Below, one piece after another: positions 15,345-63,784 of a DNA stretch of 64,000 nucleotides (positions are counted from its first letter, which is position 1; each line of letters begins with the position of its first letter). The DNA comes from a virus. A model generated the notes under the pieces. It was not told the DNA's origin, did no database searches, and worked only from the letters and a program-made list of their open reading frames with translations. The stretch is taken from positions 16,059 through 80,058 of the IMG/VR virus record IMGVR_UViG_3300010389_003143; one strand, written 5' to 3'. A program made the translations under genes and the position numbers.

Positions 15345-16214
15345 CTAAATTCTTCTTAGAGCACGACCGGCAAATACAGAGCTTGTAGGAGTACCGGTCT
15401 CAGCCCAAATCAAAACAAGCATGTGCTGGCCAGAAACCGGAGCCCTTATCGCAAAGGAAGCTGGAAGCGATGCGAGATAAGTTGATGCATCCAAACTTAC
15501 GGTATAATTATCGACCGTAGCAACCCCGCCAGTTATGCTTTCTGCAAGAAGAAAATTCCAGTCCTGTGGGCTGGCCGCATAAGTTCCGGGGCTGGCTAAC
15601 AGGGAATAAAGAACTTGGGCCCTAATCTCCGTTATCGGTCCTGTCCCAAGGTTTGATACAGTAAAAGAAAAATCTATCTCTCTAAAATCTGAAACGGATA
15701 TAGAGTCTGTCTCCACCTTTGACCCGCTAGTGCCAAAAGCTGTTGGCGTTTGAATGGTGGTCGGAGATGTATCTGAAGTCATTGGTGTTAGCTCCTCTAA
15801 ATTAAGTGGAAAAGTTAAAACTAATAATGATGTGGCCGAAAGAGCGACCCCAACAAAGTAAGCATCCGTGCTAGGCTGGGTTGAGGCCAGTGTGTTCCCG
15901 GTTGTTCCAACATCTGATAGCCAGTACTTTGCGCCACGAGTCAAGCCGGATAGTCCGGTTACGATACCTCCAGAATGACATACAATGCAGTTTGTGGTAT
16001 CTACAACTTCGGATACCACACCAATCGGGGGATTAGAGGATGCGGTGCTCGACGCCGAAATAACAACCTTATCATCTACTGAGCCGTCCTGATAAACAAC
16101 ATCCCCAACCCCAACTGCGCTAGCATCATTGGTGTAAGAGTGGAGGTTATCCTCTAATGATTTTACGGTTGTTACCCCAGCGGTTAAGCCAAGTACTTTA
16201 TCCTCTCCTGACAT
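15345..16214 (-). CDS. Virion structural protein (DUF2190/cement-like N domain)
   Basis: VGDVVY...IGVV...GLSGLTRGAKYWLS...VGVALSAT pattern typical of phage decoration/fibre modules. Confidence 0.6.
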   Translation of the reverse strand: MSGEDKVLGLTAGVTTVKSLEDNLHSYTNDASAVGVGDVVYQDGSVDDKVVISASSTASSNPPIGVVSEVVDTTNCIVCHSGGIVTGLSGLTRGAKYWLSDVGTTGNTLASTQPSTDAYFVGVALSATSLLVLTFPLNLEELTPMTSDTSPTTIQTPTAFGTSGSKVETDSISVSDFREIDFSFTVSNLGTGPITEIRAQVLYSLLASPGTYAASPQDWNFLLAESITGGVATVDNYTVSLDASTYLASLPASFAIRAPVSGQHMLVLIWAETGTPTSSVFAGRALRRI

Positions 16215-49734: not shown

Positions 49735-51501
49735 TTAGTGCGGAAGCATTCCGCACTCTCTCATAGCATGAATAGTCATAGGGAAATCTCCCTGTTCCTC
49801 TACAAGTCTTAGCATCTCTGCTGCAACCTGACGAACTTCAAGCTGAGCATGCTCATCGTTTCTTAGTTTTTGAAAATGAGCAAAAGATCGCCAATTAAAC
49901 ATAATATCACAGGTAATTTGAATGCCATAAGGAAGATAAAACCTTGCGCTTTCCTTTGCCCGCTTTCTACTATAGCCAGCTTCTTCAAGCCTGGCAATAC
50001 AACTGTGATAATTTTCATAAGCCTGCCTTATAAAGGCTTCTAAGTTTTCTCGCTCAGATTCAGGCCAATCAACAGGGAGGTAATATTTATCTATCTTAAA
50101 CTCCTTATATCTCGCTGATTCTGCATTACAATTGTGTATTAGAAAGCCATTTGCAACATAGTTATGGGTCCCATCTACCTCTAGATCATAAACATCCTGC
50201 ACTCCGAGATACTCTACGCTAACTATCTGCTCATAGTCAAATGCCAGACGCCGCCCTTTTCTTGGCTTTCTTTTTTTAAAGACCTCTTTAACGTCCTCCT
50301 TCAAAAAACTTTGGGCAAAGGCTTCCTCTGAGGCGCGAGAGGAATGAATTTTTTTGTGGCAACCCGAACATACAGGGGCAAGATTATTATAATCTGTCGC
50401 CCTAGTCTTATCGACTGATACTGGAATAACATGGTGGCACACAAAATCCCTAGAACACCCTTCTGGGTCAATCTGAGCTTGACAAACATAATTAAATTTA
50501 CTCAAAAGGGCCGGCATCTGCTCTCTTGTCCAGTTTCCAACGGTAGCCCTCCAGATTTTATAATCTAAATCTGGATTTATATTTGGATTTACACCATTCT
50601 TTTGGCGATTCAACTTGTATCCATACTTTCCTTTGTTCCACGGAATATTTCCAGGCTTAAAATCCTTATTCATATCTTTTAGAAAGATTATATCATGTAT
50701 ATATCCCCATTTTTTAATAAGCTCGTATTTATATCCACTTATTTTGGCAACTTCTTTCCTGGTATATTTACCCTCATATTTACCCTCATATTTAGCCCAC
50801 CAATCTCTAAAGGTATATGGCTTTCCAGATACATTTATATTTATCCCGTTTACGGCGACCATATTATCTACATTAGATATGGTCGCCTTAGAACCAAAAA
50901 CTTCTACGCCAAGATACTCTCCAATTTCTACAAAGCCGTCGTCCCGAGAGTAAAACTTGTGATCTAATGTAGTTGATATTGTTCTTCCGGACTTTGTAGT
51001 AAACTTATAAACATCACTCTTACCGTTATAAAAAACCTTTGATATATAGCCTTTTTTTACAAGATTTGAATCATCTTGCTTAGTCCTGCATCGAACCGGC
51101 CTACCATACTGCCTTCTATACTCCTTTCCATTTTTAGACTTCGATAAGATTCCATTCTCATATTGATCATAGAGATCCTTTATCATCACCTTTCTTACTC
51201 CGCCACTGGGCTTTGGAATGTAAATCTCGGTATCACCAGTAACGCAATTCACCCCGGCTCGATGCTTCAAAAGATGAATATGGGTGGCGATATCAGTTGT
51301 AATAAGGAAGTGCAAGGATGATTTCTCAAAGGGTGTGTGATGACCTTCGCGAGCCAGCATATTTAAAAGCTTGCCCATTCTAGCTCGCTTTTTAGGATTT
51401 AAATCACGGCTGGTGCTTGTCCATGCAGAGAGGGCGTGCGTTTCGTCGCTCCCATAAGTTCCCATTAATTCTACGGTATTTTTTGTATTTACTTTGCTCA
51501 T
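49735..51501 (-). CDS. thyX: Flavin-dependent thymidylate synthase, intein-containing
   Basis: GHHTPFE, KHRAGVN|CNAESARY, ARFYLP, NWRSF.HF..LR...HAQLEVR. Confidence 0.92.
   Translation of the reverse strand: MSKVNTKNTVELMGTYGSDETHALSAWTSTSRDLNPKKRARMGKLLNMLAREGHHTPFEKSSLHFLITTDIATHIHLLKHRAGVNCVTGDTEIYIPKPSGGVRKVMIKDLYDQYENGILSKSKNGKEYRRQYGRPVRCRTKQDDSNLVKKGYISKVFYNGKSDVYKFTTKSGRTISTTLDHKFYSRDDGFVEIGEYLGVEVFGSKATISNVDNMVAVNGININVSGKPYTFRDWWAKYEGKYEGKYTRKEVAKISGYKYELIKKWGYIHDIIFLKDMNKDFKPGNIPWNKGKYGYKLNRQKNGVNPNINPDLDYKIWRATVGNWTREQMPALLSKFNYVCQAQIDPEGCSRDFVCHHVIPVSVDKTRATDYNNLAPVCSGCHKKIHSSRASEEAFAQSFLKEDVKEVFKKRKPRKGRRLAFDYEQIVSVEYLGVQDVYDLEVDGTHNYVANGFLIHNCNAESARYKEFKIDKYYLPVDWPESERENLEAFIRQAYENYHSCIARLEEAGYSRKRAKESARFYLPYGIQITCDIMFNWRSFAHFQKLRNDEHAQLEVRQVAAEMLRLVEEQGDFPMTIHAMRECGMLPH
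50131..51246 (-). mobile_element. Intein in ThyX (372 aa) carrying an HNH endonuclease
   Basis: N|CVTGDTEI...TLDHKF...HHVIP...NNLAPVCSGCH...VYDLEVDGTHNYVANGFLIHN|C. Confidence 0.92.
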
Positions 51502-53612: not shown

Positions 53613-56150
53613 TTATGCCCACTTTACGGGTCCTCGCTTGGGATATGACCTTAGGGCTTTGTTTTTCTGGATCTTTATATCAAACCCTGGCTCACTTTCG
53701 TAAACCTTGATTCTTGCCTCAGAATGATCTCTTAAATACTTACAATTATCAAAAAACTCAACGACAATAGCCTGGGTTTTCCCCTCGCTCTTTCTTATGA
53801 CTCGACCAATTCTCTGTAAGGCACGTCCAGATGACTTTCCAGATCCAGCAAGGATTAGGGCATCCAGCTCAGGTATGTCAACTCCCTGGTCGAATATCTT
53901 TGATGCTATCAGAATGTCCAGCTTACCATCTTTCATCTCCTGTATGGATTCCATGCGTATTTTTGATGTCTTTGCTCCATCTAGGAATTTTACCCTGAAA
54001 TCATCTGATAACCGGTCCATCAGAGCATCTCCGTGTCCTACTCTGACCACCAGGATGAGGACTTTTTTACCTTTGCTTACGAGCTTTTTGGCCGCCTTTA
54101 CTATTAGATCATTTCTATCATCATTTTCGACAATATAGTTCTTATATACGTCATGATAATTTTTGCCAACAGCCCTCATGACCGGTACATCTAAAAAGTA
54201 GATCTTTGGCTTTACTAGATAGTTGTTTTTTATCAAATAAGTAGCATTTATATCTACAATTTTTGGCCCAGATACAGCTTCAATTAAAATGTCATCGCCA
54301 GTATCTCTCCATGGCGTTCCTGAGAAAAGAAAACGATGTTTTGCCGAAACGCTTGCTCTATGAAGAAACTGAAGAGTTTCTGAAGCTGCATATTGGCACT
54401 CATCAAATATGAATAGTTGCGCCTCTTGAACCTTCTTTCTTACCATCGCCTTATTTAGAGCATTTATATGCTTTTTTGAATCTAAAGTGGTATCGTTATC
54501 TGTAATTTTGACCTTTTTATTGAAGGCCGATGCGGCAGACCAGATCGTCATTATGGTTACTTGCTTTGAAACATCGCATTCCCCGCCGCCGACTATGCCG
54601 CATTCTATACCGTAAGCAGATTCAATTGTTTTCTTCATCTGATAAAGAAGTTCAATACCAATAACATACACAATTGTTGGTATATTATATTTTGCAACAA
54701 CGGAAGATATAACGAAACTTTTACCAGAGTTATGAGTTACGGTAAAGTCAGATAACAAATATCTATTATCCCCATCAACTTTAAAGCCAAAATAATCGTC
54801 ATATCCAGCTTCTTCATAGGAAAATCCAGTTACTAGAACATCCTTTTTTTGCAATCTTTTTGTCGCCTTTTTTCTAGGAAGCTTACACGGAATTTCGCTT
54901 AAATCTCCAGATAGGCTGACTCTAAAGTAGTAGCCTTCTGCACCATTATTTGTGCAAATCTTTTTTTGTCTCGAAACATAAGCTGCAAAACCAAGGCTTC
55001 GTGCAACAAAAGCAAGATCCCTAGAAAGCCTCTCAGACTTAGAGATAAAATCATAACTCCTTCCATCGCAAGAACCATCCGCATCTAAGAGGCCAGCCAA
55101 AAGACTTAGTCTATCACTTCTATTTGAAGTTTTATAGTCTTGAGGAATAAATTTTGTTCCAGATCTAGTTTGGTGTAGCCCTTCTTTTCTTATTATATTT
55201 ATGAGCTTATTTTTGCCCTTATTTTTAAACCCAGTAGTGAAAAAATAAGTTAAACCATTTTTTCTTAGATTTAAGTCCAGCCTTTCCGCCTCATCTTTAC
55301 AGTAAGATATAATTTCTTCATCTACAGATGTTATTCCAATTGAATCGTGAAAGCTGCCATCACCAAGCAGTAGGCCCATAAAATATGGATCCATAGATAA
55401 TTGCTTTTTGGGAAAATCTACACCAACTCTAAATAGCTTTCTTATATGTTTACCATAATCGCTTAGCTTTTCCCATTCAGAAAATTTTATATCCTCAATA
55501 TTTCCGGCTAATTTATCACAAGCTCTACGACGAGTTCTTTTTAGGGAAAGTATATGCTCCTGGTTTATTACAAATGACTCACCCTTGGTAGGTATTATTC
55601 TTACCATCCTATCTTTTCCGCGACAGAGCTGCAGGACCCTTCTTGGCTTAGAGTCTGGACCCATAATACGATCACCAACGACTACTTCTTCCACCCTTTT
55701 TGTAGATCCATCATACATGAGCACTTCAGTGCCCCTTGCATGACAGCCCGTGGCCATCTTAATAATTCCGCTACCATTGCTATAGGCTGTTTTTACAGCG
55801 TTTAGCTGATATGCTCTGGGTTCAAAGTCACTATTTTTTTGAGGAACAGGGCTTCCATACTCTAGAGTCGGCCTTTTATCTACAATTGAATATTCAATAT
55901 TCTTGCTATTGAGAAATTCCTTGACCATAGCCAGCAGACCTATGGGGAATTTTCCGTTCTTTTGAAGAAGACGAACCTTTCCGTCCCACCCGCCATATTT
56001 CCCCTGACTTCCAAACCCACCTCGACCGCCGGCCATAAAGCTGTATCCAGGATGATCATAACTTAGCTTATTTGAAAGCTCTTTTACGTTCTCCTCGCTA
56101 ATTTGACCAATAAGCTGGCAGTTGACATTTTCTATTTTTATCTCTAGCAT
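53613..56150 (-). CDS. SF2 (UvsW/XPB-like) DNA helicase, intein-containing
   Basis: RAYQ, ATG|SGKS, DECQ, SGTPWR, IFDQGVDIP, QRIGRVIR. Confidence 0.92.
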   Translation of the reverse strand: MLEIKIENVNCQLIGQISEENVKELSNKLSYDHPGYSFMAGGRGGFGSQGKYGGWDGKVRLLQKNGKFPIGLLAMVKEFLNSKNIEYSIVDKRPTLEYGSPVPQKNSDFEPRAYQLNAVKTAYSNGSGIIKMATGCHARGTEVLMYDGSTKRVEEVVVGDRIMGPDSKPRRVLQLCRGKDRMVRIIPTKGESFVINQEHILSLKRTRRRACDKLAGNIEDIKFSEWEKLSDYGKHIRKLFRVGVDFPKKQLSMDPYFMGLLLGDGSFHDSIGITSVDEEIISYCKDEAERLDLNLRKNGLTYFFTTGFKNKGKNKLINIIRKEGLHQTRSGTKFIPQDYKTSNRSDRLSLLAGLLDADGSCDGRSYDFISKSERLSRDLAFVARSLGFAAYVSRQKKICTNNGAEGYYFRVSLSGDLSEIPCKLPRKKATKRLQKKDVLVTGFSYEEAGYDDYFGFKVDGDNRYLLSDFTVTHNSGKSFVISSVVAKYNIPTIVYVIGIELLYQMKKTIESAYGIECGIVGGGECDVSKQVTIMTIWSAASAFNKKVKITDNDTTLDSKKHINALNKAMVRKKVQEAQLFIFDECQYAASETLQFLHRASVSAKHRFLFSGTPWRDTGDDILIEAVSGPKIVDINATYLIKNNYLVKPKIYFLDVPVMRAVGKNYHDVYKNYIVENDDRNDLIVKAAKKLVSKGKKVLILVVRVGHGDALMDRLSDDFRVKFLDGAKTSKIRMESIQEMKDGKLDILIASKIFDQGVDIPELDALILAGSGKSSGRALQRIGRVIRKSEGKTQAIVVEFFDNCKYLRDHSEARIKVYESEPGFDIKIQKNKALRSYPKRGPVKWA
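54729..55745 (-). mobile_element. Intein in helicase Walker A (339 aa), VMA-like with LAGLIDADG
   Basis: ATG|CHARGTEVLMYDG...MGLLLGDGS...LLAGLLDADGS...YFGFKVDGDNRYLL.DFTVTHN|SGKS. Confidence 0.95.
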
Positions 56151-56156
56151 TTTATT

Positions 56157-56185
56157 AATTTAAGAATGGCAACAAAACATGTCAA
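56157..56185 (-). promoter_or_regulatory. Sigma70-like promoter (TTGACA-N17-TAAATT), probably leaderless
   Basis: Perfect -35; 17-nt spacer; helicase ATG 6 nt after the -10; no RBS. Confidence 0.55.
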
Positions 56186-56213
56186 CTATTACAGCAGGAA
56201 ATATTGCAGAACG

Positions 56214-57614
56214 CTACTTCTTATTCTTTCTCCTATCTATGAGGGAAGTTCTTCCGCTTGACCTCTGCATTCTGCTGAAAGCAGAATTTTTCTTCTTAAT
56301 CTTCCTATTAAGCTCTCTGCTCGTTGCGTTTACTTTGTCTTCCTCAAAATCAAGCGTCATAGTTGCTGCACTATTCTTTTCTTTTGACTCAGCAAGAAGT
56401 GCCTGCTCTTCGCTTTCTCTTTTCAGATTTTCAACTCGGTCCTTTGGAAGCCCAAGACCTGCAAACCAGCTGTAAATCTTAATTGAATCACCATCTGATG
56501 GCGTTGAATAAACGCCCTGGAAGATAGAGGCCCCATTAGTCTGCTGAGAAATCATGTGGAAGCAGTAATTGATGTTCAGAGCAGGAAGCCTCTCTAGCGC
56601 AGACTCTGGTCCTGTAATTATAACGCCGCCTGCCCTGGTCTGGCTTAAATCAAAGCCAGATGCAAGCATATTTCCGTCTAAGCTATTCATTACAGCTTCT
56701 GCTAGAGCAGTCTCCTCCATGTAATCATCAACCTCTATAACGCCGTAAGTTGAGCAGTTTCCTGCTGCAATAATCTTTGCAAAATCGCTGGGATCTAGCG
56801 AAGTAAACTTTGACGGACTACAAGTTAGCGTATTAAATACATGTAGTGGCTCGATAATGGCTTCATTTGAAACTTCCCAGAACTTTGACTGACTGAGGTC
56901 AGCATAAATCTGCTCAATTCTGGCATTATCAACAACAATAAGGTTTACAACCATCTTGTTAACTGCCATCCTTGCTAGTCGGGATAGCGTCTCTATTGAA
57001 TTCTTCTTGGACTGAGCATCTTCAGTCGCCTTAGGAAGAACATAGATAACTCCAACCTGTATTCCTGACTCAAATAGCATTGAAACCATTGTTTCAACAG
57101 AGCTTGAGCCGGTTCCACCGCCGCCCGATACCGCGACATAGACCATGTTGTTGCCGTCTACAATAGGATCGAGGAATTCGGCAAGCTGATCCTGAGATTC
57201 TTCGAAAATCTCTCTTCCGAGATCTAAGTCTTTGCCAGTTCCGCCCAGGCTCCCCTCTAGCAGCAGCTTCTGGTGCCCCGGAACTTCTATGAACTCAAGA
57301 TCTTGAGCGGAAGTATTTACGACGCCTACATCGTAACCTTTCTTGTGGAATACCTCCGCCAATCTTGAGCCAGCTTGGCCCACGCCAACTACTGCAAACT
57401 CTATACTTACGGATCTTTTAGATATAACCTGCACTTCCTCCTCCCAATCTGTTTTTTCGGTCTTCTTTGAGGCGAGCATATTGTTAAGCTTATTCAGAAC
57501 GTCCGGATCCATGCCGTCAGAGCTGCTATCCGCTTCTTCCTCTTCGCCTTCTCCAAAGGCTTCCATTAGACTTTTGTTCTCGGCTTCAATCTGCTCTTTT
57601 GTTTTTTTAGCCAT
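56214..57614 (-). CDS. Tubulin/FtsZ-family GTPase (C-terminal part of the 801-aa ORF, with its own RBS and ATG)
   Basis: VGVGQAGSRLA, GGTGKD, SGGGGTGSS (tubulin signature), VDN, SLDPSDF (T7 loop); GAGGA 7 nt before ATG 57614. Confidence 0.88.
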   Translation of the reverse strand: MAKKTKEQIEAENKSLMEAFGEGEEEEADSSSDGMDPDVLNKLNNMLASKKTEKTDWEEEVQVISKRSVSIEFAVVGVGQAGSRLAEVFHKKGYDVGVVNTSAQDLEFIEVPGHQKLLLEGSLGGTGKDLDLGREIFEESQDQLAEFLDPIVDGNNMVYVAVSGGGGTGSSSVETMVSMLFESGIQVGVIYVLPKATEDAQSKKNSIETLSRLARMAVNKMVVNLIVVDNARIEQIYADLSQSKFWEVSNEAIIEPLHVFNTLTCSPSKFTSLDPSDFAKIIAAGNCSTYGVIEVDDYMEETALAEAVMNSLDGNMLASGFDLSQTRAGGVIITGPESALERLPALNINYCFHMISQQTNGASIFQGVYSTPSDGDSIKIYSWFAGLGLPKDRVENLKRESEEQALLAESKEKNSAATMTLDFEEDKVNATSRELNRKIKKKNSAFSRMQRSSGRTSLIDRRKNKK

Positions 57615-58619
57615 TACATTTTCCTCATAATATATGTTCAGTTGTTTAAGAATTTCTTCCGAAGAAGTTACTGCGTGTGGCACGACTCCTGTTCCATTAT
57701 ACGAAATTACTCTGCAAAGATAATCCGTATGGATGTTCATGGGATCTACGTCTGTAGTTATTATATCGCACCCGAATTTTTTCGCCTCATAAAATGCCAA
57801 ACCAAGCCCTTCCCTTGTAGAGGGGGCTATTAAGCAATCTGACTTTCTATATATATTATATATCTCACTTTTGCTTAAAATATCATTTATTATCATAATA
57901 TTATTAGATTTTTCAGCAATAGTCCGCTCTTTATCTGACAATCTTCCGGTTATTATTAATTTTGAATTTTCGACCTTATCTGAGAACGCAGAAAAAGCCC
58001 TTAAGACGTTCTCCGTATTCTTTTGAGAGAATGATGGATTTAATGATGCCTGATGATAGAATGTAAACTCTCCCTCTGACTTTTTAAACTCATCCAGATG
58101 ATCATCTGCATCATTCGCATAATCCCAAGCTGTCTCATATACAGTTTCTTCTGGGAATAATCTAGACGCCGTCTTTGTTAGGGATATTATACCATCGAAT
58201 TTTGAATAAGAACCTCTTTTTAGATGGCTTAAGTCAACCCACTCTGGCATGGGTATGTCGTAAATCTTGGTCCCGCCAGACCTCTTTATTCGATCAACCC
58301 AGTCTGCCGTTGGCATAAAAGTTTCAAGAGAAAATATAATATCTATTTTATTCCTTGCAGCGAAAGTTACTATATTATTCCTGTTGTATCTGTTAACCTC
58401 AACTATATTGAGGTTATTTAAAAGATTTTTATCGCTACGATCGGGGTAAAATGGAGCAAATCTCTGGTTTACCTTTCTATACTTTTCCTTAGGGAAAAGG
58501 TAGACTTCGTTGTTCTTGGAAAGCTCCTTGTAAAGAGATTTGCCCAAATAAAACAACCCTGATTCAAATAAATATGTCTTTATTAAGATTCTCTTATTTT
58601 TCAAATTTACTAAATTCAT
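56214..58619 (-). CDS. GT4-like glycosyltransferase read in frame into the tubulin (fusion ORF)
   Basis: KN...L.AF, YRKSDCLIAPSTREGLGLAFYEA...IITTD (EX7E); no stop before the tubulin domain. Confidence 0.75.
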   Translation of the reverse strand: MNLVNLKNKRILIKTYLFESGLFYLGKSLYKELSKNNEVYLFPKEKYRKVNQRFAPFYPDRSDKNLLNNLNIVEVNRYNRNNIVTFAARNKIDIIFSLETFMPTADWVDRIKRSGGTKIYDIPMPEWVDLSHLKRGSYSKFDGIISLTKTASRLFPEETVYETAWDYANDADDHLDEFKKSEGEFTFYHQASLNPSFSQKNTENVLRAFSAFSDKVENSKLIITGRLSDKERTIAEKSNNIMIINDILSKSEIYNIYRKSDCLIAPSTREGLGLAFYEAKKFGCDIITTDVDPMNIHTDYLCRVISYNGTGVVPHAVTSSEEILKQLNIYYEENVMAKKTKEQIEAENKSLMEAFGEGEEEEADSSSDGMDPDVLNKLNNMLASKKTEKTDWEEEVQVISKRSVSIEFAVVGVGQAGSRLAEVFHKKGYDVGVVNTSAQDLEFIEVPGHQKLLLEGSLGGTGKDLDLGREIFEESQDQLAEFLDPIVDGNNMVYVAVSGGGGTGSSSVETMVSMLFESGIQVGVIYVLPKATEDAQSKKNSIETLSRLARMAVNKMVVNLIVVDNARIEQIYADLSQSKFWEVSNEAIIEPLHVFNTLTCSPSKFTSLDPSDFAKIIAAGNCSTYGVIEVDDYMEETALAEAVMNSLDGNMLASGFDLSQTRAGGVIITGPESALERLPALNINYCFHMISQQTNGASIFQGVYSTPSDGDSIKIYSWFAGLGLPKDRVENLKRESEEQALLAESKEKNSAATMTLDFEEDKVNATSRELNRKIKKKNSAFSRMQRSSGRTSLIDRRKNKK

Positions 58620-59316
58620 GCTTTAAAACTCGTACTTTAGACGCCATTCTGATTATCTCATTATTGACCCTTCCTGCATGAACTGAGTTTTCGCTATTCG
58701 TAAGCGATCCGCCATTTTTTATAACAGAGTAATAATAAAGAACTTTGTGGATATATTTTATTGGATACTTCTCCACCACACGCAACCACATATCATAATC
58801 TTCCGATATCCATAAAGATTCATCAAAGAATCCTACGTCATCAAAAACCTCCCTCTTTATCGTTGTCGATCCCGATGCAACTAAATTCTGCCTATACATT
58901 AGAGGATAGTTTATTTTAATTGGACGACTGTAGAACGGCCTCATCACCTTTGTTCTGTTGTATATTATTTTATAATTTCCACAGGTCATTGCTATGTCGC
59001 CATCTTTTCTAAACTCTTCGACGCTATAATAGAGCTTTTCCTTTGCCATTATATCGTCTGCATCTAATAGCGAGATGAGATCCGCATCGGTCGATTTAAT
59101 GCCAAGATTTCTTGCCGCCGATGGTCCAGAATTTTTATCTGTTTTCAAAAGTTTTACCTTAGGATAAAGCTTTGTTATAGCGCTAATATTTTCTGTAGAA
59201 CAATCGTCAATCACAGTTATCGAGAAATTCTTGTATGACTGCTGCAAACAGCTTTCTATTGCCTGCTTTAGATAAGGACCTGGATTGTAAGCCGGAATGA
59301 TTATTTCTACTTTCAT
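58594..59316 (-). CDS. GT2 glycosyltransferase
   Basis: IIIPAYN, IDDCS, NSGPSAARN, LDADD, EDYDMWLR. Confidence 0.92.
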   Translation of the reverse strand: MKVEIIIPAYNPGPYLKQAIESCLQQSYKNFSITVIDDCSTENISAITKLYPKVKLLKTDKNSGPSAARNLGIKSTDADLISLLDADDIMAKEKLYYSVEEFRKDGDIAMTCGNYKIIYNRTKVMRPFYSRPIKINYPLMYRQNLVASGSTTIKREVFDDVGFFDESLWISEDYDMWLRVVEKYPIKYIHKVLYYYSVIKNGGSLTNSENSVHAGRVNNEIIRMASKVRVLKHEFSKFEK

Positions 59317-59717
59317 TTTTGTTGCAACTCTTGATCGCCCTGCTTTATTTTACCCGATTGCTTTTGGCCAGGGCAAAGAGTTTGAATCAAAATAATGCAT
59401 ACAGAAAGAAATAAGCATAAAATTGTTTTTCGATCTATTGTTTCGCCCTTCATGAGATAAGAGAGGATCGCAAAAATTATAACGCCGATTCCAAAGCTTA
59501 CCAGCTTTGGCGGCCACAGATTTCCATCAAAATACTCCACAAGATACTTCCAGCCATAATAAAACAATGCACTGCATGGGATCGAGAAAGTCATTATTGT
59601 AAATAAGGGGCGCTTATCCCACCAATCATATATAAATTGTAGATTCACCTGCATCCAAGCAACTATATTTGCTATGATCAGAAGGACGAGTGAATATAAT
59701 AGAGTGTTTCCGCTCAT
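59313..59717 (-). CDS. Four-TM DMT/SMR-like membrane protein
   Basis: Four hydrophobic helices; KGE...K motif. Confidence 0.55.
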   Translation of the reverse strand: MSGNTLLYSLVLLIIANIVAWMQVNLQFIYDWWDKRPLFTIMTFSIPCSALFYYGWKYLVEYFDGNLWPPKLVSFGIGVIIFAILSYLMKGETIDRKTILCLFLSVCIILIQTLCPGQKQSGKIKQGDQELQQK

Positions 59718-59786
59718 CTTAATAAATCCATCGGAAACTGCTAATGAAAAAGGCAGCTAGCGGATAAATGCTCACGATCTCCACAG

Positions 59787-60128
59787 CTACCTCCCATAGT
59801 CATCTTGTATTCTAACTACATCATCCAGCTCAGTTGTCGAAACTTCCATTAGCTTTACATCGCCATCCGGAGCGCAGAATCTATGAATCAGCCCCGGACT
59901 AATATGCATTGATTCGCCCGGATTTAACATAATTTCTTGCAGCGAATCCTCCGAATCACCGCAAACCAGCAAAAGCCTTCCCTCTAGAACTCGGATAGTC
60001 TCTTCCTTTTCCCTGTGAAGCTGAAGAGAAAGTCTTTTTCCGCTGTTTATATGGATGATTTTCCCGGCATATCTATCTGTTTTTGCCCAAAGCTCCTCAT
60101 ATCCCCACGGCTTTTTCGTTATGCTCAT
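59787..60128 (-). CDS. Cupin, mannose-6-phosphate isomerase type II-like
   Basis: KPWGYE...LSLQLHREKEET...IHRF...EVST..LDDVVRIQDDYGR. Confidence 0.85.
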   Translation of the reverse strand: MSITKKPWGYEELWAKTDRYAGKIIHINSGKRLSLQLHREKEETIRVLEGRLLLVCGDSEDSLQEIMLNPGESMHISPGLIHRFCAPDGDVKLMEVSTTELDDVVRIQDDYGR

Positions 60129-60152
60129 AAAATCATCTCGCTTTTAATATAA

Positions 60153-61004
60153 TCACTTCTCCAACCATGCCAGCACACTTGCATGATCTATTGAAAGCTT
60201 CGCCATAAATATCTGCGAGTAAGTCCTAGTCCTACTCTTCCAAGTTGTCTTTACTTTGCTCTTCCAATCTTTAGTATCAGCAGTGCGCAAAGGCCCGAGG
60301 CCAGCAAAGCCAACGCCATCTAATCCGAAACCTGCAGTATTTGATTCAAGAGTCAAAACCTGATCGGTTGCCTGATCATAATCGATTACGAGCCAGCTAT
60401 GGCCTCTTGGCCATCTTGAGAAGCTCTGTATTAGATAAACTCCGTCTATCGGGAGGGCTCCTTGAGGCATTATTTGGCCAACACCCCATTCGGACGTGAC
60501 AGCAGGCCCATAGCCTCTGTAGATCGATTCTGTAGCCCCCTTTGCGACCTGCCACTCCTTCCACTGGTCTACCGAGAATGGTATGCCAAAACCATTGCCT
60601 ATTAAATATGAAGTAAACATTGTGCAGTTTGTTTTATCTTCGCCCAAGAATCTCGACGGCAAAAAGTCTACGCCCGGAGGAAACGTCGGAACCTGCGCAT
60701 CGGTTAGGTCGTAAGTTGCACTTTGAGCTGAGGTTAAAAGCGGATAAAATTTATCCCAATCATATAAAGCGCCAGCTGCATTTTGTGATGAAGCCAGCAG
60801 TTTTGCCCAAGTTGCAGCTCCAACTACCCCATCATCCAAAAGACCCTCAGTCGCTTGAAAATGTTTTACCAGCCCTTTTGTTTTTGGGCCGAAATCTCCA
60901 TCTACCAAGCATGAAAGGCCATGCTTATTAAGCGATTCTTGGCATAACTTCACATCAGCACCTGATGATCCAAGCTTAATTGTGCCAGGCATTTCATCTC
61001 CCAA
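60153..61004 (-). CDS. Endolysin-like protein: PG-binding domain plus Cys/His (CHAP/NlpC-like) domain
   Basis: GSSGADVK...DGDFGPKT...FQ...DGVVG..TW; NCTMF and GHSW..TLES. Confidence 0.72.
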   Translation of the reverse strand: MGDEMPGTIKLGSSGADVKLCQESLNKHGLSCLVDGDFGPKTKGLVKHFQATEGLLDDGVVGAATWAKLLASSQNAAGALYDWDKFYPLLTSAQSATYDLTDAQVPTFPPGVDFLPSRFLGEDKTNCTMFTSYLIGNGFGIPFSVDQWKEWQVAKGATESIYRGYGPAVTSEWGVGQIMPQGALPIDGVYLIQSFSRWPRGHSWLVIDYDQATDQVLTLESNTAGFGLDGVGFAGLGPLRTADTKDWKSKVKTTWKSRTRTYSQIFMAKLSIDHASVLAWLEK

Positions 61005-61062
61005 GGTAAATTAACTATCTATATTTAGACTAAATAATAGATTGCTGTTTAGCAGCGCTCTA

Positions 61063-61998
61063 TCATCTAAATAGGTCATCAAGATCTGCCCTATACATCT
61101 CTTCGAGCAATGCTCTCCAGGAATACTGCGGCTCCCAGCCTAATTCGTCCCTTATTTTAGATGGATTACCCAGCAAAAAGGGCACTTCTGATGGGCGCAT
61201 AAATCTCTGATCTGCTTCATAAACTTCATCTGGGTCCAACTCTGCCAGGCCGCATACAAATTCCAACATTTCACGAATAGTCGCTCCGCTTCCAGTGGCA
61301 ACAAGATAGTCTTCTGGCCTATCGGCCTGAAGCATCATCCACATTGCTCGCACATAATCCTTAGAGTGACCCTCATCCCTAAATGCTTCAAGATTTCCCA
61401 TCTTAAGAGTCTCTTGAAGCCCAAGCTTAACCGAGGCGACACCTCTGGTTATTTTTCTTGTGGCAAAATCAAACCCCCTTCTTGGAGAAGAGTGGTTATG
61501 CAGAATGCCGTTGCAGGCAAATAGGCCATAAGCTTCTCTGTAATTCTTCACCGCCCAAAAGGCGGCCAACTTTGCGACTCCATATGGAGATCTTGGATGA
61601 AAAGCAGAAGACTCATCGTAGCCTTTTTCGGGGCAAGCCAGGCCTCCAAACAGCTCTGAGGTACTAGCCTGATAATAACGAGTATACGGAGAGATTTGAC
61701 GTATCATTTCTAGCTGCCCAATAACCGCCCTTGCATCCACATCAAAAGTAGATAAGGGCTCTCTAAAAGACTGCCAGACATGGCTCATTGCGGCTAGGTT
61801 GTAAAATTCGTGCGGCTTATGATCATAAAGAACTCTTGAGATAAGAGTCTGATCTGTTATGTCGCCTTCAAATAATTTAAAATTTTTGTTGCCAAGCAAA
61901 TGATCAATGTTCATATACTTAACAAGGGTTCCATCCCTCAAGGCAAGTCCTACAACCTTATAGCCTTTCTCTAGGAGAAGTTCGCTGTATGATGCATC
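61063..61998 (-). pseudogene. gmd: GDP-mannose 4,6-dehydratase copy 1, N-terminally truncated
   Basis: ASTSELFG, SPYGVAK, GNL..RD.GH intact; the frame upstream of the annotated start reads DASYSELLLEKGYKVVG but lacks ITGxxGQ and a start/RBS. Confidence 0.75.
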
Positions 61999-61999
61999 A

Positions 62000-62059
62000 C
62001 TAATGACATTTATATATGCTAATATTTAATATAGTAATAGCAAAAGTAAATGTCATTAG
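62000..62059. repeat. Inverted repeat (13-bp perfect arms, imperfectly extended) upstream of the HNH gene
   Basis: CTAATGACATTTA at 62000-62012 pairs with TAAATGTCATTAG at 62047-62059. Confidence 0.8.
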
Positions 62060-62796
62060 GAGGTTTTATGGACTCTAGAATAATTAAAAAAATTCTTAAA
62101 AAAGAGTGCGAACAATGTGGTAAATTATTTGAGGTTAGAGATACGGCAAGATTAAGAGTAAAAAGGTTTTGTAGCAGAAGTTGTACCTCAAGGTTTATTA
62201 ATACTGGAAGAAAAAGATCTGAAGAGTTTAAGAAAAATTTATCAGAAAAATTAAGTGGAAAAAAAAATCCATTTTATGGGAGAAAGCACTCTGAAGAGAC
62301 TAAAAAAAAGTTATCTGAATCAAACAAGGGTTCTTATATAGATAAATATGGAGAGGAAAGGGCTCAGCTAATAAAAGCTAAATTATCTGACGCTCAAACT
62401 GGAACCAGAAATGGGTTTTATGGAAAGAAGCATTCTGAGGAATCTAAAGAATTAATATCTAGAAATCACGCAGATGTATCGGGCTCAAATAATCCCATGT
62501 ATAGAAATGGTCAAAAAATTACTGGAGAAAAAAATGGATCTTGGAAGGGTGGAGTATCATATATAGAAAGGCCAAAAGAATGGAATGATGAGCTTAAAAC
62601 TACAATTAGAAAAAGAGATGGCTTTTCATGTGCATTATGTCAAAAAAACGGATATGATGTTCATCATATTGATTATAATAAATTTAATAATTGTAAAGCA
62701 AACTTAATAACATTATGTAGAAGCTGTCATGCAAAAACAAATTTTAATCGAGAGATATGGAAAAAGATATTATTAGAGGTGATGAATGAAAAATAA
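62050..62796 (+). CDS. NUMOD3-repeat HNH homing endonuclease
   Basis: CEQC..FCSRSC finger; HSEETKKKLS/HSEESKELIS NUMOD3 repeats; CALC...HHIDYNK.NN...NLITLCRSCH; GGAGG RBS before MDSR at 62068. Confidence 0.85.
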   Translation: MSLGGFMDSRIIKKILKKECEQCGKLFEVRDTARLRVKRFCSRSCTSRFINTGRKRSEEFKKNLSEKLSGKKNPFYGRKHSEETKKKLSESNKGSYIDKYGEERAQLIKAKLSDAQTGTRNGFYGKKHSEESKELISRNHADVSGSNNPMYRNGQKITGEKNGSWKGGVSYIERPKEWNDELKTTIRKRDGFSCALCQKNGYDVHHIDYNKFNNCKANLITLCRSCHAKTNFNREIWKKILLEVMNEK

Positions 62797-63784
62797 TAGA
62801 CAGCTTAGAGTCATATTGACCGGTGTGGCAGGCCAAGATGGGTCATACCTGGCAGAATATTTAATTAAGCGAGGGTACTTCGTCTACGGTGTATCTCGTC
62901 GTAAGTCCGTTAACCAGGGTCATGAAAACATTGAACACCTTATTGATAATGACTCATTTCAATTATTAGAGGGTGACATTACCGATTCCACTTTTATCAG
63001 TCGCATTATTCATGACATCAAACCTCATGAATATTACAGCTTAGCTTCTCAGAGCCATGTAGGATACAGCTTTAAAAATCCACTTGATACTTTTAGAGTT
63101 ACTGGCGAAGCAGTTATTATGCAACTTGAGATGATTCGACATTACTCACCTGCAACACGCTTTTATCAAGCCAGTACCTCTGAGCTATTTGGAGGCTTGG
63201 ACTGTCCTAAGTCTGGTTATAGCGAAAACACGCCATTTCATCCACGCTCTCCATATGCTGTAGCCAAAGCTGCTGCCTTCTATGCAGTTCAGAATTATAG
63301 AGAAGCATATGGGCTTCACGCTTCAAATGGAATCTTATTTAATCACAGCAGCCCTCGTCGTGGTCATGATTTCGCTACTAGAAAGATGACCAGGGGCGTT
63401 GCCAGGATTAAGCTTGGCCTGCAAGATGCTTTAAAGATGGGCAACTTAGAAGCTGTCAGAGACGAGGGTCACGCTTACGATTACGTCAGGGCGATGCACC
63501 TAATATTGCTTCAGGATAAGCCTGATGATTATGTTATTGCTACAGGCAAGAGTGCTAGCATCCGTCAAATGTTAGAGCATATTTGCAATATAGCTGGGCT
63601 TAAGATTGAAGACGTATATGAAATGGATCAAAGGTTTATGCGCCCGTCAGATGTTCCATTCTTGCTTGGTGACGCCACTAAAGCACGAGAAATTTTAGGT
63701 TGGACTCCTGAGTATGACTGGAAAAAACTTCTAACTGAAATGTACCAAAATGATTATGCTGAAATATCATCGGATGAAGAATGA
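62786..63784 (+). CDS. gmd: GDP-mannose 4,6-dehydratase copy 2 (intact)
   Basis: LTGVAGQDGSYL, QSHV..SF, ASTSELFG, SPYAVAK, DYV.AM. Confidence 0.95.
   Translation: MKNNRQLRVILTGVAGQDGSYLAEYLIKRGYFVYGVSRRKSVNQGHENIEHLIDNDSFQLLEGDITDSTFISRIIHDIKPHEYYSLASQSHVGYSFKNPLDTFRVTGEAVIMQLEMIRHYSPATRFYQASTSELFGGLDCPKSGYSENTPFHPRSPYAVAKAAAFYAVQNYREAYGLHASNGILFNHSSPRRGHDFATRKMTRGVARIKLGLQDALKMGNLEAVRDEGHAYDYVRAMHLILLQDKPDDYVIATGKSASIRQMLEHICNIAGLKIEDVYEMDQRFMRPSDVPFLLGDATKAREILGWTPEYDWKKLLTEMYQNDYAEISSDEE

Follow-up and report, generated by a model that had tools for sequence, protein, structure and literature searches.

Why should a phage join a glycosyltransferase to a tubulin in one reading frame, and which proteins would such a frame supply? 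The question is posed by a stretch of viral DNA of 64,000 nucleotides (nt), here called the window (IMG/VR record IMGVR_UViG_3300010389_003143, positions 16,059 to 80,058), in which a single open reading frame (ORF) on the minus strand encodes both. The record is an 80-kb IMG/VR virus fragment with an estimated completeness of 24%, and the genome is therefore of jumbo size; its source is an uncultured marine jumbo phage, belonging to a clade of uncultured phages with jumbo genomes of about 220-400 kb. What is new at this locus is a TubZ-like phage tubulin in a recurrent, previously undescribed fusion to a GT4 glycosyltransferase that retains two cistron-like starts. Below, loci with both genes in one frame are called fused, and those with separate genes split. 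The elements of the ORF are the following.

56214-58619, minus strand: the whole GT4-tubulin ORF (ORF listing and Pfam; the same architecture occurs in dozens of proteins of ~800 amino acids [aa] and at about 45 loci)
57615-58619, minus strand: GT4-type glycosyltransferase (GT) domain with a GT-B fold, residues 1-335 (Pfam, AlphaFold2 [AF2] model, Foldseek)
57786-57812, minus strand: EX7E motif of the GT (E270...E278, EGLGLAFYE); 45 homologs, fused and split, all keep E270, G271, G273 and E278
57622-57626, minus strand: Shine-Dalgarno (SD) element GAGGA inside the GT coding sequence, 7 nt 5' of the internal ATG, kept at the nucleotide level in 32 of 33 fused alleles
57612-57614, minus strand: internal ATG (M336), the tubulin start codon of split relatives
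57399-57614, minus strand: N-terminal extension of the tubulin (two helices and an acidic stretch), tubulin residues 1-72, present in fused and split forms (AF2 helices 6-21 and 37-55)
56445-57398, minus strand: Tubulin/FtsZ GTPase domain and TubZ-like C-terminal domain, tubulin residues 73-390 (Pfam Tubulin; AF2)
57105-57125, minus strand: tubulin signature GGGGTGS (T4 loop); G165, G166, G167 and G169 are (nearly) invariant in 70 family members
56217-56444, minus strand: long C-terminal helix and basic tail (…KIKKKNSAFSRMQ…SLIDRRKNKK); AF2 helix 391-419 is followed by lower-confidence helices, and the basic tail is in the family consensus

The GT4-tubulin fusion and its relatives

A first-pass annotation of this DNA had described a GT4-like domain that runs without a stop into a full tubulin/FtsZ-family GTPase, and this description holds. 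The ORF listing of the window gives 801 aa in one reading frame with zero internal stops, and its Pfam matches are Glycos_transf_1 (residues 198-342, 6.9e-14) and Tubulin (residues 409-572, 3e-12), both above the curated cut-offs. PHROGs matches of the ORF carry the label 'glycosyltransferase' and, more weakly, 'tubulin PhuZ' (5e-6). The acidic linker that the annotation placed between the two domains exists as an acidic stretch, but it is not a fusion scar: in the alignment, stand-alone tubulins also have the ~70-aa N-terminal extension. We therefore discarded the idea of a linker created by the fusion; the stretch is part of the tubulin's own N-terminal arm.

To place the ORF among its relatives, we searched its tubulin part against 5.8 billion clustered proteins. 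Dozens of ~800-aa proteins combining PF00534 and PF00091 were matched at 61-92% identity, originating from JGI, ENA, Tara and Logan assemblies and from contigs of up to 348 kb. The same search returned stand-alone tubulins of 450-500 aa at 60-79% identity. We then fetched 96 loci, 17 from IMG/VR and 79 from metagenomes, and classified each by tblastn frame analysis. Both gene arrangements were present among these related phages, a comparison the annotation had called for: about 45 of the 96 loci are fused (tubulin identity 62-92%), and about 25 are split, with a GT4 homolog directly upstream of the tubulin (55-74%). Beside the more distant tubulins (34-44% identity) among the fetched loci, GT4 is not present. 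The four nearest relatives, from independent samples and with 88-92% identity, are all fused in the same uninterrupted frame, which about 40 further loci share. One fused allele resides in a 317-kb genome that is 94% complete, and one split allele in a 335-kb genome that is complete and has terminal repeats.

The split loci indicate how the two states may interconvert. In these forms the GT ORF, read in another frame, ends a few codons past the tubulin ATG (…YGDIKCQK* in locus L019; …YCEDFYGTK* in L026); in L032, the overlap of GT stop and tubulin start reads ATGGCTAA. An in-frame TAA immediately preceding the tubulin ATG occurs at L064 alone. Because the GT stop of split forms overlaps the tubulin ATG in another frame, an insertion or deletion (indel) of ±1 nt just upstream of the ATG would fuse the pair, and a further one would separate it again. 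We built a maximum-likelihood tree from 62 distinct tubulin-core rows ('quick' search); its GT-linked clade is fully supported, with fused and split members interleaved inside it. The tree requires at least four changes between the states, three of them forced by well-supported branches; gathering all split rows into one clade costs 68 log-likelihood units and is rejected (p-AU 0.007). These comparisons argue that ±1-nt indels toggle the fused and split states, and that fusion has come about mostly in this way rather than by the loss of an in-frame stop. The annotation's alternative, that the GT stop codon was simply lost, is a poor fit as a one-off event, given about 45 fused loci, the interleaved tree and the ±1-nt indels at the stop/start overlap. 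By the same comparisons, the fusion is old, widespread and recurrent.

Outside viral metagenomes, matches were few. Among cultured phage genomes in INPHARED, tblastn matched only gp138 of Bacillus phage G (24% identity), and blastn of the region matched nothing. A search of GTDB species genomes yielded a single match, on a 16.5-kb contig binned with an Actinomycetota metagenome-assembled genome, which is too weak for a host call. That contig (WLOB01000045.1, locus L106) could come from a phage and have been binned wrongly, or else hint at a host of the freshwater split-gene clade. A full-text literature search covering GT-tubulin fusions, TubZ with glycosyltransferase, marine jumbo-phage tubulins and tubulin superfamily surveys found no description of the architecture.

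The internal start codon

On the coding strand, the junction of the window ORF reads TAT TAT GAG GAA AAT GTA ATG GCT AAA, that is, GAGGA, a 7-nt spacer and ATG, in agreement with the ribosome-binding site and start codon that had been noted there. Initiation at M336 would yield a 466-aa tubulin. Aligned with the fused proteins, stand-alone tubulins start at the very column of the junction Met. This Met is invariant in 33 of 33 distinct fused alleles, with positions -1, -2, +1 and +2 varying freely. Conservation extends to the nucleotides of the SD element: codon -4 is GAG in 22 of the fused alleles, AAG in seven and GGA in three, followed in each case by GA, and never GAA or AAA, although GAG accounts for 48% of Glu codons and AAG for 46% of Lys codons across these ORFs. 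With codon -4 limited to GAG, AAG and GGA, the purine core AGGA/GGAG survives the replacements among E, K and G.

Predicted pairing with the anti-SD sequence points in the same direction. The median duplex energy is -6.1 at the internal starts of fused alleles and likewise -6.1 at the tubulin starts of split relatives, compared with -4.2 at GT starts and -2.7 at other in-frame ATGs of the same ORFs (fused internal starts versus other in-frame ATGs, Mann-Whitney p=4e-14). For the window, the values are -6.3 at the internal start, -2.5 at the GT start and, for real gene starts, a median of -5.4. It is the comparative signal, and not the SD value of the window alone, that carries the argument for the internal start. 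We read this signal as selection on the internal start; the ORF very probably still supplies free tubulin, and probably more of it than of the hybrid. The earlier proposal that an 801-aa fusion and a stand-alone 466-aa tubulin could both be produced is thus well founded, the internal ribosome-binding site and ATG being conserved across relatives. A promoter and terminator scan of 55900-61200 gave counts at chance level, with no notable internal promoter signal and no minus-strand terminator inside the operon.

Bacterial genes in which one ORF has two in-frame starts, each with its own SD element, and supplies nested products include E. coli infB, with its IF2 isoforms, and clpB. The GT4-tubulin ORF resembles them in having two in-frame starts and potentially two nested products from one ORF. 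It differs in that its nested products were once, and elsewhere still are, the products of separate genes, and in that the state toggles among close relatives. The locus would be a clean natural example of one ORF with two cistron-like starts, in which an overlapping stop and start lets genes fuse and split by single-base indels.

The tubulin and the glycosyltransferase

We modeled the GT and the tubulin as separate domains with AF2. The tubulin model has a predicted local distance difference test score (pLDDT) of 88.8 overall and above 90 over residues 73-390, and it superposes on TubZ, CetZ and FtsZ, in keeping with the two-domain fold of GTPase domain, core helix H7 and C-terminal domain. 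The motifs GVGQAGSR (GxGxxG, T1) and GGGGTGSS (T4) are present, with glycines that are (nearly) invariant in 70 relatives. In the T7 region (VVDNARIE), D229-N230 are invariant in the 70 family members and align with LIDNAK of RepX. Taken together, sequence and model predict an intact TubZ/RepX-like, GTP-dependent filament former with a flexible N-terminal arm of ~70 aa.

Which tubulin family is nearest? Searched by sequence against the Protein Data Bank (PDB), the tubulin matched RepX/TubZ of pXO1 best (4ei7, 5.9e-22), ahead of archaeal FtsZ (about 6e-11) and TubZ-Bt (about 1.5e-7). With the family profile, RepX again led (1.7e-51), followed by FtsZ (1e-34), CetZ (1.4e-32), TubZ-Bt (2.4e-32) and c-st TubZ (1.4e-29); PhuZ was not among the top 60 PDB profile matches. 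Ranking by fold put TubZ-Bc and TubZ-Bt first (4ei7/2xka, TMt 0.75-0.80), and close relatives carry the Pfam domain TubZ-like_C (PF22453). In a pairwise comparison with phiKZ PhuZ, 26% identity was confined to the N-terminal 204 residues. An affinity to PhuZ is therefore not borne out: set against PhuZ, TubZ, CetZ and FtsZ, the tubulin is placed nearest to RepX/TubZ by sequence, profile and predicted fold. The family is sizeable, with 2072 cluster representatives at E≤1e-3 and 167 at E≤1e-30 (50%-identity clusters), and is essentially confined to viral and metagenomic contigs.

Some members of the family have further domains. Eight distant ones, 795-983 aa long (P0142, P0147, P0148, P0178, P0188, P0217, P0236 and P0267), contain LAGLIDADG inteins; where a flanking Tubulin match is visible, the intein breaks the protein near position ~121 of the Pfam Tubulin profile, around GGGTG. 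Another protein of the family, P0256 (818 aa), ends in a PilM/FtsA actin-like domain and is thus a tubulin-actin-fold hybrid.

Known phage tubulins serve two roles: PhuZ holds the phage nucleus at the center and transports capsids, and the DNA of plasmids or prophages is partitioned by TubZ. With TubZ/RepX of Bacillus pXO1 and pBtoxis and of Clostridium phage c-st, the tubulin described here shares the tubulin/FtsZ fold, a TubZ-type C-terminal domain, the long C-terminal helix and a basic tail. Identity is only about 20-22%, however, and the present protein has the additional ~70-aa arm, a GT4 fusion partner and a setting in a glycosylation operon, within a lytic-looking jumbo phage rather than a low-copy plasmid or prophage. 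Nor does a gene for a TubR-type DNA-binding adaptor, the hallmark of TubZRC, adjoin it: the tubulin is flanked by GT4 and by UvsW (63 nt away), or by an amidase in relatives, with no small ORF between. Centromere-like (tubC) repeats were not noticed beside it either, although no dedicated search for them was made. To PhuZ of the Chimalliviridae (phiKZ, 201phi2-1), the likeness is that both are tubulins encoded by jumbo phages; here, the tail is strongly basic where that of PhuZ is acidic (the 'knuckle'), and the protein has 466 aa rather than about 320. With phiKZ chimallin (gp054) as the query, nothing was matched in five related genomes, which span 223-395 kb and of which four are 94-100% complete, but this protein diverges fast and the search had no positive control. 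A Pfam search for Gp23, the T4-type capsid protein, also found nothing and is uninformative, as the control failed too.

The GT half combines the C-terminal domain PF00534 (Glycos_transf_1) with two Rossmann-like domains, and its AF2 model (pLDDT 93.8) has the GT-B fold. Foldseek neighbors are mostly GT4 enzymes (BshA, MshA, PimB', B. anthracis BA1558 and a chlorovirus GT) and also include glycogen synthase. From its sequence, including the conserved EX7E motif, we predict an intact retaining GT4 enzyme that is part of a GDP-sugar/GT2 operon, and the neighboring gmd-type genes suggest a GDP-sugar as its donor. DNA glycosylation seems a less likely role. The classical route appears to be absent, as a ThyA-type pyrimidine hydroxymethylase was not found in four near-complete relatives or in this record, and the window has ThyX. 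The ThyX (Thy1) gene, at 49735-51501 on the minus strand, is itself interrupted by an intein with an HNH endonuclease.

Neighboring sugar genes and the possible role of the fusion

The first-pass annotation had remarked on a GT2 gene, a cupin and gmd beside the ORF, and all three lie where it had put them. The neighbors are listed here.

58594-59316, minus strand: GT2 glycosyltransferase, whose stop overlaps the GT4 start by 26 nt (Pfam Glycos_transf_2, 3.7e-30)
59313-59717, minus strand: small multi-pass membrane protein, possibly a small DMT-type transporter (no Pfam match; ESM Atlas lead)
59787-60128, minus strand: cupin of the mannose-6-P isomerase C-terminal or sugar isomerase type (Pfam)
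60153-61004: PG-binding protein
61063-61941, minus strand: GDP-mannose 4,6-dehydratase-type (gmd-type) gene, N-terminally short (syntenic homolog in relatives)
62786-63784, plus strand: second, full-length gmd, adjoining a NUMOD3 gene
53613-56150, minus strand: UvsW-type helicase with an intein, a conserved downstream neighbor of the tubulin (Pfam and relatives)

Across relatives the conserved order is gmd/epimerase, cupin, membrane protein, GT2, GT4, tubulin, an optional PG_binding plus Amidase_2 gene, UvsW and a 199-aa protein, with GT2 directly upstream of GT4 in nearly all related loci that have GT4. The distant tubulins without GT4 (among them loci L022, L085, L092-L096, L099 and L102) have an SDR sugar epimerase/dehydratase directly upstream in nine of 10 loci, and UvsW again follows. 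In a large protein database this GT4 subfamily has only 30 stand-alone homologs, and those on informative contigs show the same contig sizes as the split tubulin matches. The scarcity of stand-alone homologs and the SDR gene upstream of distant tubulins argue for a long-standing association of tubulin and nucleotide-sugar genes, which could reflect function or only inherited synteny. The annotation's specific suggestion, capsids glycosylated in transit, finds no direct support here, nor does capsid trafficking of the PhuZ kind; the GDP-sugar enzymes, GT2, DMT-like membrane protein and PG-binding proteins suggest envelope glycans at least as much as capsid glycosylation. The membrane protein beside GT2 hints at lipid-linked envelope glycans; its ESM Atlas scores of 0.93-0.95 to small 'multidrug transporter'/DMT_6 clusters are a lead only.

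How might the two halves work together? The domain arrangement and its conservation, the retained start signals and the complete motifs are observed, and on them we build an explanation that we consider probable: the locus would be a GT-tubulin gene pair welded into one frame but still behaving as two cistrons. From a split state, with the GT4 stop a few nt past the tubulin ATG in another frame and rarely an in-frame stop before it, a ±1-nt indel would have created the 801-aa ORF. Ribosomes loading at the GT start, which is weak and overlapped by the GT2 gene, would make the GT4-tubulin hybrid, and those loading at the strong, conserved GAGGA-N7-ATG would make free 466-aa tubulin, probably in excess. 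Through its tubulin moiety the hybrid would most likely co-polymerize with free tubulin, such that a fraction of the filament subunits carry the enzyme on a flexible tether. Because the tubulin family is persistently linked to nucleotide-sugar genes, we suggest that filament and glycosylation pathway cooperate, rather than that the filament partitions DNA like a TubZRC-type motor or serves as a nucleus spindle like PhuZ. The two products, their co-assembly and any functional coupling are thus what we infer from the locus.

Several points weigh against this explanation. The tree came from a 'quick' search, and intragenic recombination could have raised the number of transitions counted; the two products are deduced from conservation only; the frequent switching between states is as compatible with a near-neutral fusion as with a useful one; and the order of sugar genes, tubulin and UvsW could be synteny inherited within the lineage rather than functional coupling. 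In addition, 10% of the in-frame ATGs in this genome have an SD match as good as that of the internal start, a point in favor of the reading that only the 801-aa hybrid is made and the internal ATG is an ordinary Met codon at which no initiation occurs. We hold that reading to be quite improbable: the Met persists in every fused allele while its flanking residues are free to vary, the SD element is kept at synonymous and even at non-synonymous positions, and its energy is identical to that of the true tubulin starts in split relatives. Since the source is a metagenome-derived record, one might also suspect an artefact of assembly or sequencing, or a pseudogene decaying in this one genome. The chance of this is negligible; the same frame occurs in more than 40 loci from independent samples and assemblers, the catalytic motifs are all retained in both domains, and both domains are modeled at high confidence.

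A harder question is whether the hybrid has any role of its own. A 1-nt indel could fuse overlapping neighbors at no cost, because the internal start still supplies tubulin and the GT works with tubulin appended, and the two proteins might act in unrelated processes. The repeated toggling, the retention of tubulin start signals as if for a separate cistron and a gene order that is conserved over a very deep phage lineage, and maybe simply inherited, are what such a near-neutral fusion would leave behind. We regard it as possible but somewhat unlikely. Fused forms are the majority of clusters and have persisted while the GT diverged to 38-50% identity between fused lineages; every GT molecule from a fused allele bears a 53-kDa polymerizing domain, which is unlikely to be without effect; the GT4 subfamily is found only beside or fused to this tubulin; and more distant tubulins of the family also adjoin nucleotide-sugar enzymes. 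Alternatively, the GT might serve the filament, capping, nucleating or membrane-anchoring the polymer according to the nucleotide-sugar level, with glycan catalysis secondary. For this there is precedent in UgtP of B. subtilis and OpgH of E. coli, glucosyltransferases that bind FtsZ and antagonize its assembly according to the UDP-glucose supply (PMC3723540). These resemble the present case in that a nucleotide-sugar glycosyltransferase is physically coupled to a tubulin-family polymer. A GT made from a weak start would also be substoichiometric, as expected of a cap or regulator, and the link between the tubulin family and nucleotide-sugar genes spans a long evolutionary time. UgtP and OpgH, however, come from other GT families and inhibit the FtsZ of the host as separate host proteins, and here the enzyme is covalently fused to the phage's own tubulin; moreover, the strict conservation of EX7E implies that enzymatic activity is under selection. 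We regard a mainly regulatory GT as improbable.

The fused pair with two starts, its hybrid co-assembling with free tubulin, thus remains the explanation we prefer. Recurrent fusion, in the logic of the 'Rosetta stone' argument, predicts cooperation between the two proteins. The setting differs from those in which PhuZ and TubZ act, in that the tubulin is wired into a sugar-nucleotide/glycosyltransferase operon and repeatedly fused to an enzyme. We tentatively speculate, with some doubt, that this is a third functional kind of phage tubulin, whose filaments are a scaffold or regulator of phage glycosylation, the hybrid being the covalent form of a complex that is non-covalent in split relatives. 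A viral cytoskeletal polymer given over to glycosylation, or under its control, would then be the first of its kind, and the infected cell would contain either a virus-encoded cytoskeleton that organizes glycan synthesis or one that senses nucleotide sugars.

The surrounding genes vary in ways of their own. In many fused loci, an endolysin-like PG_binding_1 plus Amidase_2 gene overlaps the tubulin stop (L001:7379-8302, L005:7352-8287). The window has no Amidase_2 gene at that position, and UvsW starts 63 nt on. The UvsW intein consists of Hint and LAGLIDADG domains; it is present in the relatives L011 (845 aa) and L019 (832 aa) and absent from L010 (506 aa) and L013 (510 aa). Several distant loci have a DUF4379 treble-clef zinc-finger protein beside the tubulin. 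Finally, the gmd-type gene at 61063-61941 (minus strand) lacks about the first 35 profile positions, and a NUMOD3 homing-endonuclease gene lies at 62050-62796 (plus strand); the region 61063-63784 may be an endonuclease-associated cassette that displaced or duplicated gmd.

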